Of a stretch of 64,000 bases of DNA, positions 1,956-61,181 are shown one piece after another (position 1 is the stretch's first letter; each line of letters begins with the position of its first letter). The notes under the pieces are model-generated. The model was not told where the DNA came from, did no database searches, and worked only from the letters and a program-made list of their open reading frames with translations. Source of the stretch: Escherichia coli (lineage in GTDB: Bacteria; Pseudomonadota; Gammaproteobacteria; Enterobacterales; Enterobacteriaceae); assembly GCF_044324785.1 (NCBI RefSeq), contig NZ_CP172127.1; one strand, 5' to 3'. The position numbers were made by a program, and so were the translations under genes.

Positions 1956-2939
1956 ATGGCGTTATTAAATGTAGATAAATTATCGGTGCATTTCGGCGAC
2001 GAAAGCGCACCGTTCCGCGCCGTAGACCGCATCAGCTACAGCGTAAAACAGGGCGAAGTGGTCGGGATTGTGGGTGAGTCTGGCTCCGGTAAGTCGGTCA
2101 GTTCACTGGCGATTATGGGGCTGATTGATTATCCGGGCCGCGTAATGGCGGAAAAGCTGGTGTTTAACGGTCAGGATTTGCAGCGTATATCAGAAAAAGA
2201 GCGCCGCAACCTGGTGGGTGCCGAAGTGGCGATGATCTTCCAGGACCCGATGACCAGCCTTAACCCGTGCTACACCGTGGGTTTCCAGATTATGGAAGCG
2301 ATTAAGGTGCATCAGGGCGGCAACAAAAGTACCCGCCGTCAGCGGGCGATTGACCTGCTGAATCAGGTCGGTATTCCCGATCCGGCATCGCGTCTGGATG
2401 TTTATCCGCATCAGCTTTCCGGCGGCATGAGCCAGCGTGTAATGATCGCTATGGCAATTGCCTGTCGGCCAAAACTGCTGATTGCCGATGAACCGACCAC
2501 TGCGCTGGACGTGACCATTCAGGCGCAAATTATCGAACTGCTGCTGGAGCTACAGCAGAAAGAGAACATGGCGCTGGTGTTGATCACTCATGACCTGGCA
2601 CTGGTGGCGGAAGCGGCACATAAAATCATCGTGATGTATGCAGGCCAGGTAGTAGAAACGGGCGATGCGCACGCTATCTTCCATGCGCCGCGTCACCCGT
2701 ATACTCAGGCATTGCTGCGTGCGCTGCCGGAATTTGCTCAGGACAAAGAACGTCTGGCGTCGTTGCCAGGTGTCGTTCCCGGCAAGTACGACCGCCCGAA
2801 CGGCTGCCTGCTTAACCCGCGCTGCCCCTACGCCACTGACAAATGCCGTGCTGAAGAACCGGCGCTGAATATGCTCGCTGACGGGCGTCAGTCCAAATGC
2901 CACTACCCACTTGATGATGCCGGGAGGCCGACACTATGA
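1956..2939 (+). CDS. dppD: Dipeptide ABC transporter ATP-binding protein DppD
   Basis: 327 aa; Walker A GESGSGKS, signature LSGGMSQR, Walker [13 protein letters not shown]. Confidence 0.93.
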
Positions 2940-3940
2940 GTACGCAAGAGGCCACCTCGCAACAACCGCTGTTGCAGGCTATCGACCTGAAAAAACATTA
3001 TCCGGTGAAGAAAGGTATGTTCGCGCCGGAACGTCTGGTGAAGGCGCTGGACGGCGTTTCGTTTAACCTTGAACGCGGCAAAACGCTGGCGGTAGTAGGG
3101 GAATCTGGCTGCGGTAAATCGACCCTCGGTCGGTTGCTGACGATGATCGAAACGCCCACCGGTGGTGAACTGTATTACCAGGGGCAGGATCTGCTCAAGC
3201 ACGATCCGCAGGCGCAGAAGCTGCGTCGGCAGAAAATCCAGATTGTCTTCCAGAACCCTTACGGTTCGCTGAATCCACGTAAAAAAGTCGGGCAAATTCT
3301 TGAGGAGCCGCTGCTGATTAATACCAGCTTAAGCAAAGAACAGCGTCGGGAAAAAGCCCTGTCGATGATGGCGAAAGTCGGCCTGAAAACCGAACATTAT
3401 GACCGCTATCCGCATATGTTCTCCGGCGGACAACGTCAGCGTATCGCCATCGCCCGTGGTCTGATGCTCGACCCGGACGTGGTGATTGCCGATGAGCCGG
3501 TCTCCGCGCTGGACGTCTCAGTGCGTGCGCAGGTGCTCAACCTGATGATGGATTTGCAGCAGGAGTTGGGGCTTTCTTATGTCTTTATTTCCCACGACCT
3601 GTCGGTTGTGGAGCACATTGCTGATGAAGTGATGGTGATGTACCTGGGCCGCTGCGTGGAGAAGGGAACGAAGGACCAAATCTTCAATAACCCGCGTCAT
3701 CCGTACACTCAGGCGCTACTCTCCGCGACGCCGCGCCTGAACCCGGACGATCGCCGCGAGCGCATTAAGCTCACCGGTGAACTGCCAAGCCCGCTCAATC
3801 CACCGCCGGGCTGTGCCTTCAACGCTCGCTGTCGTCGACGCTTCGGTCCCTGCACCCAGTTGCAGCCGCAGCTAAAAGACTACGGCGGTCAACTGGTAGC
3901 CTGCTTTGCTGTTGATCAGGATGAAAATCCGCAGCGTTAA
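2936..3940 (+). CDS. dppF: Dipeptide ABC transporter ATP-binding protein DppF
   Basis: 334 aa; Walker [10 protein letters not shown], signature FSGGQRQR; 4-bp ATGA overlap with dppD. Confidence 0.93.
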
Positions 3941-3946
3941 CTCATA

Positions 3947-3971
3947 AAACCGGGGCCGTGCGCTCCGGTTT
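3947..3971. terminator. Bidirectional hairpin between convergent dppF and yhjV
   Basis: Inverted repeat aaaaccgggg...ccggttt between the two stop codons. Confidence 0.5.
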
Positions 3972-5241
3972 ACTCAATCAGCTTCAACAGTGGCGACAAG
4001 CATAGCAAAATGCCGTAAAGCAGAATCAGCCAGGCTTTAAATCCGCGAAGTTTTTCCAGTTGTGCGACTTTATAGATCAGGAAAAATGGAATGAGGCACG
4101 ACACAATGCCATATAACGGACTTCCCAACTGAAAGAACACCAGCACCGATACACGAAACGAAACCCAAATCGTCAACGTAATGACGATAAAAGCGCAGAT
4201 CGCCAGAGTCAGCACGTGTGAGTTAATTTTCTTGGTATCAATAATTCGGCTTAACAGATTGAGAATAATGCCTTTAATGGCCTCGTGGAAACCGAGATAA
4301 ATGCCAAAGAATGCGGTCAGTACGGCAAAGATATTCAGCACCGTAGAGGTGATATGAATGATATGCCCAGGGATCACCTGCGCGGCCAGTGCCAGTGCCG
4401 AGATATTTTGTTCAAAGGCAGAAACGGCTTCTTCGTGGCTAATTGAGAAGGTAAACGAAAAGGCAAAAAACAGTATCACCGCGATGAGCGTGATATAACT
4501 AATTCGGTGGGTACGCAGCGCGAGCCGGGTTGCCAGTACTTTATCCGCTTCCCGTTTACGATAGGCAATATTCATTGGGTTAAGTACCTGAATAAATACT
4601 GCAGAAAAGAAGCAAAATGGAATGGTAAGCAGGACATCGCGGAAAAAGACGGAGGCTTGCGGGAAGGCGGTTATATTGGCGAAATTCCAGTGCGGGATCA
4701 TCGCAAAACCGAACACGACAATAATCCCTACTTTGACCACCACCATTGGCCCGGAAATCTTAAACAGTAATCGTTCACCACCAGACGCAATCGCCACCAG
4801 TACGGCGAAAATAGCGACTTTATAAAGTAGAGATTGTGAAAGATCGGCATCGGTTAAACCGAAGGTTTTCAGGTACGAGGCGCTGTCGAAAACCACGGAG
4901 AGAGAGTAGATAAAAATCCCGTGGATAATCATCAAAAAGTAGATAACCCCGAGGAAAATTCCCCAGTTCTTCCCCAGGTAATGACTGATAATATCGGTGT
5001 AGTCATTACAGGAATCGCTTTCAGAAAGGGTTTTTAAATAAATATCCTGCACTACCCAGGTGGCAGGATAAGCAATGATCGCTGCGGTAATAAATACCCA
5101 AATTCCCTTCAAGCCAATTTGTACTGGCATCAGCACGGTTCCGGCACCAATCGCCATGCCTATACATAATAAAACCCAGCCGAAGTCGTAGCGTGTAAAC
5201 GGCAATTTCTGATCGTGTTTCGGTAGTGTGTTGTGCTGCAT
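3970..5241 (-). CDS. yhjV: Putative amino acid/H+ symporter family inner membrane transporter YhjV
   Basis: Multi-TM ORF; start set at internal Met ([11 protein letters not shown]...) to give 423 aa, matching recalled YhjV length; the track ORF extends to 5397. Confidence 0.85.
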
Positions 5242-5597
5242 AAAGTCCTGTCCAGAAAGAAGTCGGCCTCGCAAAAATGAATAAACCCAGTTTCTCTTGC
5301 GCAACAGGTGGAGAAGTCGATACGCAGTATGTAAAAAATGAGGCAATAGATTCACTGGGGAGGTCGCGAGGAGGCGCAATTCTACAAAATTGCGCATTTC
5401 ACTACCAGTCTGGAGTCAGCCCGGATATGAACTGCAACTATTGCAAATAAAGAAATTAAGCTGGAAGGCATCACGCAATGAGGAAGATAGCCGGGTGCTG
5501 ACGGTAAAAAGCAATCGTAAAATCAGCGGCAAGCCGGAAAGGTTCCGGTGAGGCGCAATGTTGCGGGGGCTTAATCCCTGGTGGCATTGGTTGCTGG

Positions 5598-5666
5598 AGA
5601 GAGAAAACCCCCGCACGTTGCAGGTATGCACCTGACAACATCACGGGGGCCATTCTTGAACCTGAA
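5598..5666 (-). ncRNA. rdl: Rdl antisense RNA (type I antitoxin), copy 1
   Basis: Reverse complement of the ldr leader region resembles recalled Rdl RNA (..caagaauggcccccgug..caacgugcggggguuuucuc); ends approximate. Confidence 0.5.
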
Positions 5667-5715
5667 CAACTCAAGAATAGCCGCGAAACGTTGTCATTAC
5701 AACTCAGGCGGCTAT

Positions 5716-5823
5716 ATGACGCTCGCAGAACTGGGCATGGCCTTCTGGCATGATTTAGCGGCTCCGGTCATTGCTGGCATTCTTGCCAGCATGATCGTGA
5801 ACTGGCTGAATAAGCGGAAGTAA
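5716..5823 (+). CDS. ldrD: Ldr small toxic peptide (type I toxin), copy 1
   Basis: 35 aa MTLAELGMAFWHDLAAPVIAGILASMIVNWLNKRK matches recalled LdrD; sits between yhjV and bcsG as in K-12. Confidence 0.85.
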   Translation: MTLAELGMAFWHDLAAPVIAGILASMIVNWLNKRK

Positions 5824-6080
5824 CGTGTCAGACGGGCGTCAGGCTGCCGTAATGGCAAGTTGCGCCCGGATCAGACCGCAGGGATAAAACTCTGCGGCCT
5901 TTTTCGTAAGAAAAATGCAACGGTTGCAAGCGGATAATATTCTGCGGAATGCGCAGCACAGAGTGAAGACGTGACGGATTCCGGAACAGAAAAACAGTCG
6001 TAGAATCAGCGGCAAGCCGGAAAGGTTCCGGTGAGGCGCAATGTTGCGGGGGCTTAATCCCTGGTGGCATTGGTTGCTGG

Positions 6081-6149
6081 AGAGAGAAAACCCCCGCACG
6101 TTGCAGGTATGCACCTGACAACACCACGGGGGCCATTCTTGCATCCAAA
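6081..6149 (-). ncRNA. rdl: Rdl antisense RNA (type I antitoxin), copy 2
   Basis: Same element 483 bp downstream of copy 1 with several substitutions; ends approximate. Confidence 0.45.
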
Positions 6150-6198
6150 CAATACAAGAATAGCCGCGAAACGTTGTCATTACAACAGAGGCGGCTAT

Positions 6199-6306
6199 AT
6201 GACGCTCGCAGAACTGGGCATGGCCTTCTGGCATGATTTAGCGGCTCCGGTCATTGCTGGCATTCTTGCCAGTCTGATCGTGAACTGGCTGAACACGCGG
6301 AAGTAA
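6199..6306 (+). CDS. Ldr small toxic peptide (type I toxin), copy 2
   Basis: 35 aa MTLAELGMAFWHDLAAPVIAGILASLIVNWLNTRK; diverged paralog (M25L, K32T) within the second repeat unit. Confidence 0.8.
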   Translation: MTLAELGMAFWHDLAAPVIAGILASLIVNWLNTRK

Positions 6307-6392
6307 CGTGTCAGACGGGCGTCAGGCTGCCGTAATGGCAATTTGCGCCCGGACCAGGCCGCAGGGGGAAAACTCTGCGGCCTTTTTCGTTC

Positions 6393-8072
6393 TTATTGCG
6401 GGTAAGGTACCCAGTCGCCGCCATTCAGGCGAACGTACGGTTTATCCTGGTATTGAATAACTACTGCATTTGAGTTCTCGGAGACCGGTGCTGTTTGTGG
6501 CAACCCACTGGTGAGTTTTTTCCAGTCAACATTGTCGTCGGAGAAAATCTTGCCATCAAGAACGCGAACCACCAGATCGGAGATAGCCAGGAAGCTGCTC
6601 GGTTGGTCGATGACAATCGGTGCCCCCTGATGTGGTGCCTTCATGCCGAAGAATTTCACCCCAACGGGGACGTCTGTGATAGACGGGCTGGGGATATCAC
6701 GTAGGCCAGATACCTGCATTCTGTCGCCCTTCAGCGCGCCACCGTGTTCCGGCACCACTACCACCATCACTTTACGACCCGATTTCTCCAGTTCAGTAAA
6801 GAAGGCGTCCAGCTCATCAAAGAATTTCTGCGCTCGCGCTTTGTAATCCGCTGTTTTGCTGACGCCCGGATAATGGTTGCCGTCATGCAGTGGAAGCGTG
6901 TTGTAGAACGTGGCACTACGGCTGTTTTTATCTTTTTCGGTAACGTCCAGCCAGCGGTTAAGCACGGCGGTATCGTCATAAACCGGCGAACCATCAAAGC
7001 CCAGCAAAATAACCGGCAGATTTGTTTGATCCATCAATTCGGTCTGCATGCCGCCATTTTCGCGAACTTCTTTCAAAAAACCGCCGAACTGGCCGTTATG
7101 TCCCATCATCAGGTGCTGGGTAAAGCCCAGTTTCGACAGGTTATCAAACAGATAGCAGTCGTTATTTGCCGGTTGATACAGATTAGTGTGCGAAGTCTGC
7201 CCGCAGCTGGCGCGCAGTAAACGGATCGCCGCCGGGCCACTGTAGGAGGTGGCGGAGTTAAAGTTCTTGAACTCAATATCGAAATGCGACCACAGCGGAT
7301 GCGACATCAACCCGGCGGCTTCAATATCCGACCAGGAAAGCGAACAAATATTAATCATCAGTAGTTCAAATGGCTGAGCATCAGCGGGCAGCGAAGACGG
7401 GAAGGTCGATTTACGTTTCGCCTCTGCGTTATAGAAATTATTCAGCCAGGCGTTAAGGTTCGCCGTTGTTGGCGGTGCAGTTTGTGCGGGCATATCACCC
7501 ACTACCGGTGCGCCACCCGTCGCGGCAACGGTTGCCGCTGCGTTACCACCCGTCGTTGTTACAGTGGTCGTCGGTTGACCGGCAGGCCACAAGGAGAAAC
7601 TTGGTCCCGCCAGGGTAAGTACGTTCAGCCATAGCAGAATGGCAACCACAAAAACGGTAATGCGAATCCATTGTGACAGGAATAACCAGGCCACTAATAA
7701 AACAAAAATGGCCCCAATCATCTGCCAGTTAATAAAGCGTGTGACAAGGTCGATTAAATAATCGGTACTGAACCCCGCCACCTGCGAACCCTGGCTCATT
7801 ATGCTTTCCGGGCCAGGCAACCAGGTGTCATGCCAGAACAAAGCAAAGCCGATCGGCAGGGCAATCCAGTGGCGTAAGCGATGCAGGCTGTAGCGCGGAA
7901 TGGGCATCAGCAGAAACGCGGCAAACACCAGATTGAGGAGCGGATGGAAGTTAAGATATCCCGCCCACAACAGGCCGAACTTAACCAGAAAATAGAAGTT
8001 CCAGCCGGAAAGGCCGCGCCAGTATTGCCAGAGGGAAGAAGGCATGGCGGTATTTTGCGTAAATTGAGTCAT
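6393..8072 (-). CDS. bcsG: Cellulose biosynthesis protein BcsG
   Basis: 559 aa membrane protein with Pro/Thr-rich linker; position and length match recalled BcsG (YhjU). Confidence 0.9.
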
Positions 8073-43522: not shown

Positions 43523-43539
43523 AGTTTTACTCAGAGATA

Positions 43540-43644
43540 AAAAAAACCCGGCATAGGGGACCGGGAAGAGGATAGTCTGCCGTCTCCAGACTAATAAACC
43601 GTTATAACACTCCCTGTTGGCACGGGAAACTTTGTGCTCTCAGT
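43540..43644 (-). ncRNA. gadY: GadY small regulatory RNA
   Basis: Minus-strand sequence actgagagcacaaagtttcccgtgccaacaggg...cccctatgccgggtttttttt matches recalled 105-nt GadY; terminator hairpin plus U-run at the 3' end; convergent with gadX. Confidence 0.8.
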
Positions 43645-43890
43645 AAGTTAAATATAACTTTTACTGGAAATAAGATCAGCCATTTTTTTATAAACATAAG
43701 CTATACGCTGTGCGAAAATATATTCGTGCTGCATTTACTTATTATCAATTAACTGTTATGCAAAACTACTTTGTGGATAAATTTTGGTCCTACCAAATCT
43801 GGCAGTTTTTGCGCTAAGAAACAGTCTGGCATCATTTCATTAGTATACTGAAATTGAAATAATCGCAGTAATGAAATATAAGGGATAGTC

Positions 43891-49277: not shown

Positions 49278-49615
49278 TTTAGTCCCTGAAAATTCTTGAG
49301 AAATAACGGTTCTTTAAATTGCGCGCGAGGAGAGATATGAGGGATTTACAGACCAGCGGCATAGTGGGGTTGTCAGCCAGTAAGGTGGGATACAGGCATA
49401 GTGATCGACATGGTGAGGTCAACGACAAAAAAAATGTTGCCGTTCTGCCAACAGTTCCTGCCAGCATTCGGGCAACGAAGGGTTCTACTGGTGGATACAC
49501 ATACCAGGGGAATAAAGTCGTTTTAACCTCTCCTTTAGTAATCACCGGGGGTAATGAAATCAGCATCTGCATCCCTCGTCATGCCAGCCATCAATTTCAG
49601 TTGCTTATGTCCTGA

Positions 49616-58909: not shown

Positions 58910-59170
58910 ACGTTTGCGTTTAACAAAATACGGCCATATGGATAACAAAGCCATATCATTTACAAGGGGTAACGCACAGCGCTCTTCACTCCTGATGGGG
59001 CATATCGTTTTGCCTGACAAAGAGGGCGTGCTTTTGCGTATTTGCCGAGATACCAGGCAATTTCATGGGATATAAACGCCTGTAAACTCACCCGGCGAAT
59101 ATTATCGCTCTGAATTTTAAATAAATTTATTTCTCGCCAGCCACCCCGGTATTAACCCAGGCAGCCAGCA

Positions 59171-59198
59171 TTTTTTATTTTCCTCATGGAGAATCGCT
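59171..59198 (+). promoter_or_regulatory. chuA 5' UTR U-rich element able to pair with the SD (candidate FourU thermometer)
   Basis: ttttttattttcctc directly upstream of catggag-ATG; the U-run and ucctc can pair with the ggag SD. Confidence 0.5.
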
Positions 59199-61181
59199 AT
59201 GTCACGTCCGCAATTTACCTCGTTGCGTTTGAGTTTGTTGGCTTTGGCTGTTTCTGCCACCTTGCCAACGTTTGCTTTTGCTACTGAAACCATGACCGTT
59301 ACGGCAACGGGGAATGCCCGTAGTTCCTTCGAAGCGCCTATGATGGTCAGCGTCATCGACACTTCCGCTCCTGAAAATCAAACGGCTACTTCAGCCACCG
59401 ATCTGCTGCGTCATGTTCCTGGAATTACTCTTGATGGTACCGGACGAACCAACGGTCAGGATGTAAATATGCGTGGCTATGATCATCGCGGCGTGCTGGT
59501 TCTTGTCGATGGTGTTCGCCAGGGAACGGATACCGGACACCTGAATGGTACTTTTCTTGATCCGGCGCTGATCAAGCGTGTTGAGATTGTTCGCGGACCT
59601 TCAGCATTACTGTATGGCAGTGGCGCGCTGGGTGGAGTGATCTCCTACGATACGGTCGATGCAAAAGATTTATTGCAGGAAGGACAAAGTAGTGGTTTTC
59701 GTGTCTTTGGTACTGGCGGCACGGGGGACCATAGCCTGGGATTAGGCGCGAGCGCGTTTGGGCGAACTGAAAATCTGGATGGTATTGTGGCCTGGTCCAG
59801 TCGCGATCGGGGTGATTTACGCCAGAGCAATGGTGAAACCGCGCCGAATGACGAGTCCATTAATAACATGCTGGCGAAAGGGACCTGGCAAATTGATTCA
59901 GCCCAGTCTCTGAGCGGTTTAGTGCGTTACTACAACAACGACGCGCGTGAACCAAAAAATCCGCAGACCGTTGAAGCTTCTGATAGCAGCAACCCGATGG
60001 TTGATCGTTCAACAATTCAACGCGATGCGCAGCTTTCTTATAAACTCGCCCCGCAGGGCAACGACTGGTTAAATGCAGATGCAAAAATTTACTGGTCGGA
60101 AGTCCGTATTAATGCGCAAAACACGGGGAGTTCCGGCGATTATCGTGAACAGATAACAAAAGGAGCCAAACTGGAGAACCGTTCCACTCTCTTTGCCGAC
60201 AGTTTCGCTTCTCACTTACTGACATATGGCGGTGAGTATTATCGTCAGGAACAACATCCGGGCGGCGCGACGACGGGCTTCCCGCAAGCAAAAATCGATT
60301 TTAGCTCCGGCTGGCTACAGGATGAGATCACCTTACGCGATCTGCCGATTACCCTGCTTGGCGGAACCCGCTATGACAGTTATCGCGGTAGCAGCGACGG
60401 CTACAAAGATGTTGATGCCGACAAATGGTCATCTCGCGCGGGGATGACTATCAACCCGGCTAACTGGCTGATGTTATTTGGCTCATATGCCCAGGCATTC
60501 CGCGCCCCGACGATGGGCGAAATGTATAACGATTCTAAGCACTTCTCGATTGGTCGCTTCTATACCAACTATTGGGTGCCAAACCCGAACTTACGTCCGG
60601 AAACTAACGAAACTCAGGAGTACGGTTTTGGGCTGCGTTTTGATGACCTGATGTTGTCCAATGATGCTCTGGAATTTAAAGCCAGCTACTTTGATACCAA
60701 AGCGAAGGATTACATCTCCACGACCGTCGATTTCGCGGCGGCGACGACTATGTCGTATAACGTCCCGAACGCCAAAATCTGGGGCTGGGATGTGATGACG
60801 AAATATACCACTGATCTGTTTAGCCTTGATGTGGCCTATAACCGTACCCGCGGCAAAGACACCGATACCGGCGAATACATCTCCAGCATTAACCCGGATA
60901 CCGTTACCAGCACCCTGAATATTCCGATCGCTCACAGTGGCTTCTCTGTTGGGTGGGTTGGTACGTTTGCCGATCGCTCAACACATATCAGCAGCAGTTA
61001 CAGCAAACAACCAGGCTATGGCGTGAATGATTTCTACGTCAGTTATCAAGGACAACAGGCGCTCAAAGGTATGACCACTACTTTGGTGTTGGGTAACGCT
61101 TTCGACAAAGAGTACTGGTCGCCGCAAGGCATCCCACAGGATGGTCGTAACGGAAAAATTTTCGTGAGTTATCAATGGTAA
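59199..61181 (+). CDS. chuA: TonB-dependent outer membrane heme/hemoglobin receptor ChuA
   Basis: 660 aa, signal peptide, TonB-box region, C-terminal aromatic residue (..FVSYQW). Confidence 0.9.
   Translation: MSRPQFTSLRLSLLALAVSATLPTFAFATETMTVTATGNARSSFEAPMMVSVIDTSAPENQTATSATDLLRHVPGITLDGTGRTNGQDVNMRGYDHRGVLVLVDGVRQGTDTGHLNGTFLDPALIKRVEIVRGPSALLYGSGALGGVISYDTVDAKDLLQEGQSSGFRVFGTGGTGDHSLGLGASAFGRTENLDGIVAWSSRDRGDLRQSNGETAPNDESINNMLAKGTWQIDSAQSLSGLVRYYNNDAREPKNPQTVEASDSSNPMVDRSTIQRDAQLSYKLAPQGNDWLNADAKIYWSEVRINAQNTGSSGDYREQITKGAKLENRSTLFADSFASHLLTYGGEYYRQEQHPGGATTGFPQAKIDFSSGWLQDEITLRDLPITLLGGTRYDSYRGSSDGYKDVDADKWSSRAGMTINPANWLMLFGSYAQAFRAPTMGEMYNDSKHFSIGRFYTNYWVPNPNLRPETNETQEYGFGLRFDDLMLSNDALEFKASYFDTKAKDYISTTVDFAAATTMSYNVPNAKIWGWDVMTKYTTDLFSLDVAYNRTRGKDTDTGEYISSINPDTVTSTLNIPIAHSGFSVGWVGTFADRSTHISSSYSKQPGYGVNDFYVSYQGQQALKGMTTTLVLGNAFDKEYWSPQGIPQDGRNGKIFVSYQW

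Follow-up and report, generated by a model that had tools for sequence, protein, structure and literature searches.

The yhjV-bcsG region of an Escherichia coli genome very probably carries a two-unit allele of a copy-number-polymorphic ldrD/rdlD array

The 64,000-nt stretch of Escherichia coli DNA analyzed here (the window) contains two adjacent intact copies of ldrD/rdlD in the bcsG-yhjV intergenic region, and we are highly confident that these represent the two-unit allele of an LDR-D array that is polymorphic in copy number at this site. A two-copy array is ordinary, and about 61% of complete E. coli genomes have two to five units. The array of the window is already known, as a common annotated allele of a well-known toxin-antitoxin locus at which copy-number variation has been published, and the presence of two copies in itself matters little. 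Each unit would be self-contained: a structured mRNA of ~370 nt would encode a 35-aa membrane-active Ldr peptide, and an Rdl RNA of ~66 nt, transcribed from the opposite strand, would pair with the 5' leader of this mRNA and keep the toxin untranslated.

Unit 1 (5507..5989, plus strand) comprises the promoter region, the ldr mRNA, the rdl gene, the terminator and an inter-unit spacer, and unit 2 (5990..6392, plus strand), the last unit, follows as a 483-nt direct repeat that abuts the bcsG stop codon. A repeat search returned a 300-nt direct repeat, the two copies of which (5507-5806 and 5990-6289) are 95% identical and spaced 483 nt apart, and homology extends beyond these 300 nt to the terminators, with 21 differences in ~395 aligned columns. 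The preliminary description of this DNA had placed two units with a 483-bp period at 5515-6375, which was essentially right; the units proper span ~5507-5903 and 5990-6386. The 86-nt spacer between them (5904..5989), which is specific to the bcsG-yhjV array, was the source of our copy-number probe. In the RefSeq annotation of strain N3, the array is flanked by yhjV (3970..5241) and bcsG (6393..8072), both on the minus strand. A relic third unit upstream of unit 1 was considered and rejected: local alignment of 5230-5506 with a unit scores 20, compared with a shuffle mean of 19 (sd 2.8), and the 20-nt match at 5361-5380 is thus attributable to chance.

The ldr genes of unit 1 (5716..5823) and unit 2 (6199..6306), both on the plus strand and both annotated as Ldr family toxins in RefSeq for N3, encode the 35-aa peptides MTLAELGMAFWHDLAAPVIAGILASMIVNWLNKRK (WP_001295224.1) and MTLAELGMAFWHDLAAPVIAGILASLIVNWLNTRK (WP_116836215.1), respectively. 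As had been claimed, the two peptides differ by M25L and K32T only; unit 2 carries L25 and T32, and its C-terminus reads NTRK rather than NKRK, with one positive charge fewer owing to K32T. The unit-2 peptide matched Pfam PF13940 (Ldr_toxin) with E=5.1e-25, its residues 1-35 aligning to model positions 1-35, and precomputed PF13940 matches exist for both peptides in identical loci. Neither peptide matched in an NCBIfam profile search, the library of which apparently holds no HMM for the Ldr family, and Pfam was therefore used for the family test. The signature of the Fst/Ldr superfamily, a transmembrane helix with PxxxG followed by a conserved post-helix Trp and a charged C-terminus (PMC7472228), is present in both peptides as P17-VIA-G21, W30 and the charged C-terminus. 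The unit-1 peptide is the commonest LdrD-type peptide and occurs on at least 1000 contigs, and the unit-2 peptide is a recurrent allele on ~296 contigs, where it always adjoins bcsG or is the sole unit.

Both units also contain an Rdl gene on the minus strand. The Rfam model RF01813 (rdlD; gathering score 50) matched over model positions 1-66 of 66 at 5602..5667 in unit 1 (83.7 bits; 5' tail GUUCAGGUUCAAGAAU) and at 6085..6150 in unit 2 (81.7 bits; 5' tail GUUUGGAUGCAAGAAU). These Rfam scores, both above threshold, and the Pfam Ldr_toxin match (E=5e-25) confirm the original identification of both units as ldr/rdl type I toxin-antitoxin modules. In both units, as in K-12, Rdl begins 49 nt upstream of the ldr ATG; the RNA overlaps the leader but leaves the start codon and ribosome-binding site of ldr uncovered. 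In unit 1, the Rdl consists of a 5' tail followed by a long stem-loop and a U-run. The Rdl folds reach -32.3 kcal/mol (z -4.2) in unit 1 and -30.1 kcal/mol in unit 2, and a terminator-like site is located at each Rdl. The Rdl target includes an exposed hairpin predicted in the ldr-1 leader (5648..5682, plus strand; loop 5660-5670), which falls in a hypervariable zone and in which stem changes are compensatory across genera. The Rdl 5' tail is complementary to 5652-5667, which comprises the 5' arm of this hairpin together with the first eight bases of its loop. The corresponding predicted hairpin of the ldr-2 leader (6131..6165, plus strand) has the 13-nt loop CAUCCAAACAAUA.

The predicted ldr-1 mRNA extends over 5531..5903 (plus strand; start approximate) downstream of a -10-like TAAAAT at 5518-5523, and the predicted ldr-2 mRNA over 6014..6386 (plus strand) downstream of a -10-like TAGAAT at 6001-6006. 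Terminator prediction placed intrinsic terminators at 5876..5903 for ldr-1 and at 6356..6388 for ldr-2, both on the plus strand. A strict sigma-70 consensus scan of 5380-6420 returned no promoter, so the promoters were read by eye only, with a -10 of TATTCT and a -35 of TTGTAA for Rdl and a -10 of TAAAAT or TAGAAT for ldr; the two units share these weak elements. The ~373-nt mRNAs gave predicted folds of -169.8 kcal/mol for ldr-1 (z -7.5 against shuffled sequences) and -172.7 kcal/mol for ldr-2 (z -6.6). In both predicted mRNAs, the 5' GGCGCAA is paired to the 3' UUGCGCC, closing the 5' end onto the 3' end, and GUAAUGGCAA of the 3' UTR is paired to GUUGUCAUUAC, which immediately precedes the Shine-Dalgarno sequence. 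Both long-range helices persist in a consensus built from 44 homologues of several genera. The helix of 5' GGCGCA and 3' UGCGCC is invariant and is therefore uninformative on pairing, and in the helix of columns 175-184 and 340-349 one base pair is changed on both sides in 12 sequences, and G-U transitions are numerous. In the same cross-genus alignment of 44 ldr mRNAs, the leader outside the loop is more conserved than the toxin coding sequence, with columns 71-100 near-invariant, which points to strong constraint at the RNA level.

Repression could include a step of the hok/sok type, in which Rdl would block a leader reading frame that is coupled to ldr translation. Such a hok/sok-like model with a leader ORF, ldrX, has been published (PMC4147584, PMC8167048) and is accepted, though unproven. 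Two candidates in the leader could be ldrX, and its placement is ambiguous. The first, TTG 5656 (6139 in unit 2), lies inside the Rdl target and in D-type units is in frame with ldr, the open frame having a predicted product of 55 aa; the corresponding TTG of LdrA-type units begins an ORF of 20 codons whose end overlaps the ldr start as ATGA. The second, TTG 5691 (6174 in unit 2), opens a 20-codon ORF overlapping the ldr start. The hok/sok systems of plasmid R1 and of chromosomes would share this logic: the toxin mRNA is stable and folded, with pairing between its two ends (predicted here for ldr), a short antisense RNA is directed against the leader and not the toxin start, and a coupled leader ORF is proposed. 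Their toxin family is unrelated to Ldr. When applied to the ldr leaders, the Rfam sok model RF01794 (CssrC) gave 31.0 and 30.0 bits (5565-5718 and 6048-6201, plus strand), below its gathering score of 59, and hok/sok is thus to be taken as an analogy and not as a statement of membership; these weak matches may reflect a hok-like leader architecture or chance. In K-12, LdrD is toxic on over-production and RdlD relieves the toxicity (PMC4147584), and the ldrD-rdlD double-stranded RNA is cut by RNase III in vivo (PMC7373196). For the units of the window, the sequence anatomy, the family membership, the intact state of both units and their distribution in the population are shown directly, and we infer the expression, the toxicity, the mechanism of repression and the route of recombination.

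The ldrD/rdlD (LDR-D) system of E. coli K-12 was reportedly described by Kawano et al. in 2002. K-12 MG1655 has one ldrD/rdlD between bcsG and yhjV and carries ldrABC/rdlABC with a 535-nt period at chaA-kdsA; the earlier statement of a single copy here, with tandem copies only at ldrABC, was accurate, there being one unit at the former site and three at the latter. K-12 ldrD/rdlD has the same locus and layout as the units of the window, and its peptide differs from theirs by one residue (unit 1) or three residues (unit 2), the L25 and T32 being carried by unit 2. It differs from the window in having one unit instead of two, and the Rdl 5' tails of the window each differ from it at 5 of 16 positions. 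Identity to K-12 LDR-D is 93.6% for unit 1 and 94.6% for unit 2, compared with ~75-77% to LDR-A/B/C, and by sequence comparison both window units are of the LDR-D type. The K-12 ldrA/B/C-rdlA/B/C units belong to the same family and have the same tandem organization, but they are distinguished by their locus, their period, their lower identity, a peptide subgroup ending in …AAIVSWWRNRK and unrelated spacers, the window spacer having no significant similarity to the K-12 ldrABC spacers.

We used an 82-nt probe from the spacer (5908-5989) to survey array length across the species. The probe matched in 3304 of 5426 complete E. coli genomes (61%), at 6981 places in total, with 1-4 matches per genome (median 2). 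Each array has one spacer fewer than it has units, as checked on five loci, those of C43(DE3) (three units), CX12 (four), E2348/69 (two), Nord58 (three) and Z1323HEC0393 (two). Among 60 evenly spaced probe matches, 11 genomes had one spacer, 39 had two and 10 had three; the estimated genome shares are ~39% for one unit (rarely none), ~11% for two, ~40% for three and ~10% for four. A separate spread sample, searched with a 1401-nt query, contained one unit in 15 of 40 genomes, two in 4 of 40 and three or more in 20 of 40. Direct reading of individual loci gave arrays of every length from 1 to 5 units; four are present in O26:H11 strain 11368, and five units, found in strain 2017-02-2CC, are rare. 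The locus of BL21(DE3) is identical in position and has the same 483-nt period, and its middle unit shares the tail type of window unit 2, but its array has three units (E-B-D) where the window has two (A-B).

These data do not agree with the rarity of two copies implied by the preliminary description: multi-copy arrays are widespread, are annotated in RefSeq and have been published for BL21(DE3), with three ldrD/rdlD pairs between bcsG and yhjV (PMC5435950). K-12 had been proposed as the reference that would decide whether two copies are ordinary. It does have one unit, but the comparison is too narrow, because the probe matches place the single copy of K-12 in the minority state; K-12 is not representative for the ldrD/rdlD locus. 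Type I loci undergo lineage-specific tandem duplications (PMC2887945), and short-read assemblies likely collapse tandem arrays such as these.

Ldr units are also found outside E. coli. In a scan of one genome per species, units with an Ldr-like ORF were present in Citrobacter, Kluyvera, the Klebsiella oxytoca group, Pseudocitrobacter, Salmonella arizonae and diarizonae and other Escherichia, frequently as tandem pairs or triples. The leader motif matched in Pluralibacter and Atlantibacter, in which no Ldr-like peptide was found by the ORF filter. The search pattern has 17 specified bases, for which we estimated ~35 chance matches, and non-enterobacterial matches were ignored.

The head-to-tail arrangement with an exact 483-nt period speaks for a single ldrD/rdlD unit having been duplicated recently in this strain. 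Such an event is very improbable, as the units differ at 21 of ~395 positions and each has closer relatives in other genomes than its neighbor. Unit 2 shares 98.3% identity with unit 2 of strain 2017-02-2CC, compared with ~94-95% identity to its own neighbor. In addition, both tail types recur in O26, CX12, BL21 and Escherichia sp. E1V33, and the exact pair of units is found in three further independent assemblies, with unit 2 alone in a fourth. The view of the two units as diverged paralogues with no recent duplication is thereby upheld. Near-identical 483-bp tandem repeats are known to trouble assemblers, and the second copy might on that ground be suspected to be an assembly artefact; the chance of this is negligible. 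The complete chromosome of E. coli N3 matches the window at 100% identity, independent assemblies contain identical units, ~61% of complete genomes have two or more units, and the copies differ at 21 positions, so that they do not represent the same reads placed twice.

Two genomes with the same BcsG protein have 2 and 5 units, and array length changes quickly. In the reading that we prefer, a two-unit allele of a polymorphic array, old unit lineages would recombine by gene conversion and unequal crossing-over, shifting array length, and the units of the window would represent two such lineages, with tail types A and B.

We also considered whether one unit, most likely unit 2 with its K32T and M25L changes, is a decaying non-functional copy. 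K32T lowers the charge of the C-terminus, and decay is known at this locus, EC20 being without an intact ldr and two related strains having W30S in the last unit. Against this, unit 2 has kept its ORF, its Rdl score (81.7 bits), its terminator and the entire predicted mRNA fold, its allele is present on ~296 contigs and is the sole unit in one assembly, and L25 is also found in E. albertii and many other genera. Decay of unit 2 is therefore improbable, and both window units read as intact in their ORFs, Rdl folds, terminators and predicted mRNA architecture.

The EC20 yhjV-bcsG region (2470-3572 of the extracted locus; 1.1 kb) has a partial spacer match only and no intact ldr, and it looks like a decayed or rearranged array. 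In strains 2013C-4282 and 2017-02-2CC, the bcsG-adjacent Ldr peptide (3307-3414 of the extracted loci) has W30S (…IVNSLNKRK), and the W30S change in these strains is a loss of the signature tryptophan of the Fst/Ldr superfamily. In E2348/69 (O127:H6), an IS200C transposase gene lies between the last ldr unit and bcsG, and a hipA-family type II toxin gene is located just beyond yhjV, at the place of dppF in other strains.

The differences between units are concentrated in one part of the leader. The preliminary description had noted several substitutions in the leader regions; there are nine such positions, seven of which lie within 5641-5671, and these seven make up one-third of the 21 differences between the window units. 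The 22-nt stretches 5650-5671 and 6133-6154 differ at 6 positions. This tail zone consists of the Rdl 5' single-stranded tail and the hairpin loop paired to the tail. In a sample of 23 distinct units from 13 E. coli genomes, in which sites are linked and members are non-independent, the tail zone had a pi of 0.189, with 13 of 31 columns variable, compared with 0.047 for the inter-unit spacer, 0.023 for the ldr coding sequence and ~0.02 for the remaining leader. Tail-zone diversity is ~4x that of the spacer, and the excess gives Fisher p = 2.7e-5. At least nine discrete tail haplotypes (A-I) were distinguished, and later loci gave further variants; their order is shuffled among arrays, being A-B in the window, C-B-B-A in O26, C-B-A-E in CX12, E-B-D in BL21 and D in K-12.

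These observations raised the possibility that the units are functionally insulated paralogues in which the tail and the loop are the specificity determinant, kept diverse by selection, so that each Rdl would repress its cognate ldr mRNA alone. We consider this possible, although somewhat less probable than its absence. It is favored by the contrast in pi between 5641-5671 and the spacer, remaining leader and coding sequence, and by the cross-genus comparison, in which the tail zone varies more than any other part of a leader that is otherwise highly conserved. Predicted tail-target duplexes for the window units are also far more stable in the cognate combinations (-23.4 and -23.3 kcal/mol) than in the crossed ones (-8.2 and -9.9 kcal/mol), and cognate-only repression has precedents in Sib/Ibs (PMC2943612) and OrzO/ZorO (PMC8167048). 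The Ibs/Sib and ZorO/OrzO systems likewise have several near-identical copies per genome, and in them antisense discrimination through short variable segments has been shown experimentally, whereas for Ldr/Rdl it is only inferred. On the other hand, the remaining 50 nt of Rdl differ at one position, so crossed duplexes could start within this near-identical part. Because Rdl is encoded on the opposite strand, loop mutations are self-compensating, and relaxed constraint could thus contribute to the diversity of the tail zone. Arrays with two identical tail types exist (O26, GCA_043675965), and the sample of 23 units from 13 genomes with linked sites is small. Within arrays, 2 of ~35 pairs had identical tail types compared with ~5 expected, the latter being a rough hand estimate over non-independent pairs, and this apparent avoidance was not significant.

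A related proposal, which we hold only tentatively and regard as rather unlikely, is that the 16-nt Rdl 5' tail and the leader hairpin loop may serve as an address label that stays diverse while the remaining repeat is homogenized. If this were true, the array would be a set of independent insulated modules and not of redundant copies. The tail and loop differences thus offer a cheaply testable hypothesis on whether tandem type I paralogues avoid or exploit cross-regulation. This question has already been addressed for Sib/Ibs and Zor/Orz, and our literature search found no paper on cross-regulation between Ldr/Rdl tandem paralogues.

Six Citrobacter units have the same 13-nt loop as unit 1, AACCTGAACAACT, although they are only 78-83% identical elsewhere. 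Ancient loop alleles shared across genera were considered, and common ancestry is not claimed: the loop consensus is constrained and leaves few positions free to vary, and by a rough estimate over several hundred cross-genus pairs, chance alone would yield a handful of identical loops.

Elsewhere in the window, Rfam searches identified three further RNAs. The GadY small RNA (RF00122, 147 bits) was found at 43534-43647 on the minus strand, and the window thus includes the gadX-gadW acid-fitness region. A match to the shuA/chuA 5' UTR thermoregulator (RF02597) at 59170-59201 on the plus strand scored 60.1 bits against a threshold of 58, which implies that the window includes the chu haem-uptake locus, which K-12 does not have. 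The ES205 small RNA (RF02754, 105 bits) was located at 49427-49498 on the minus strand.
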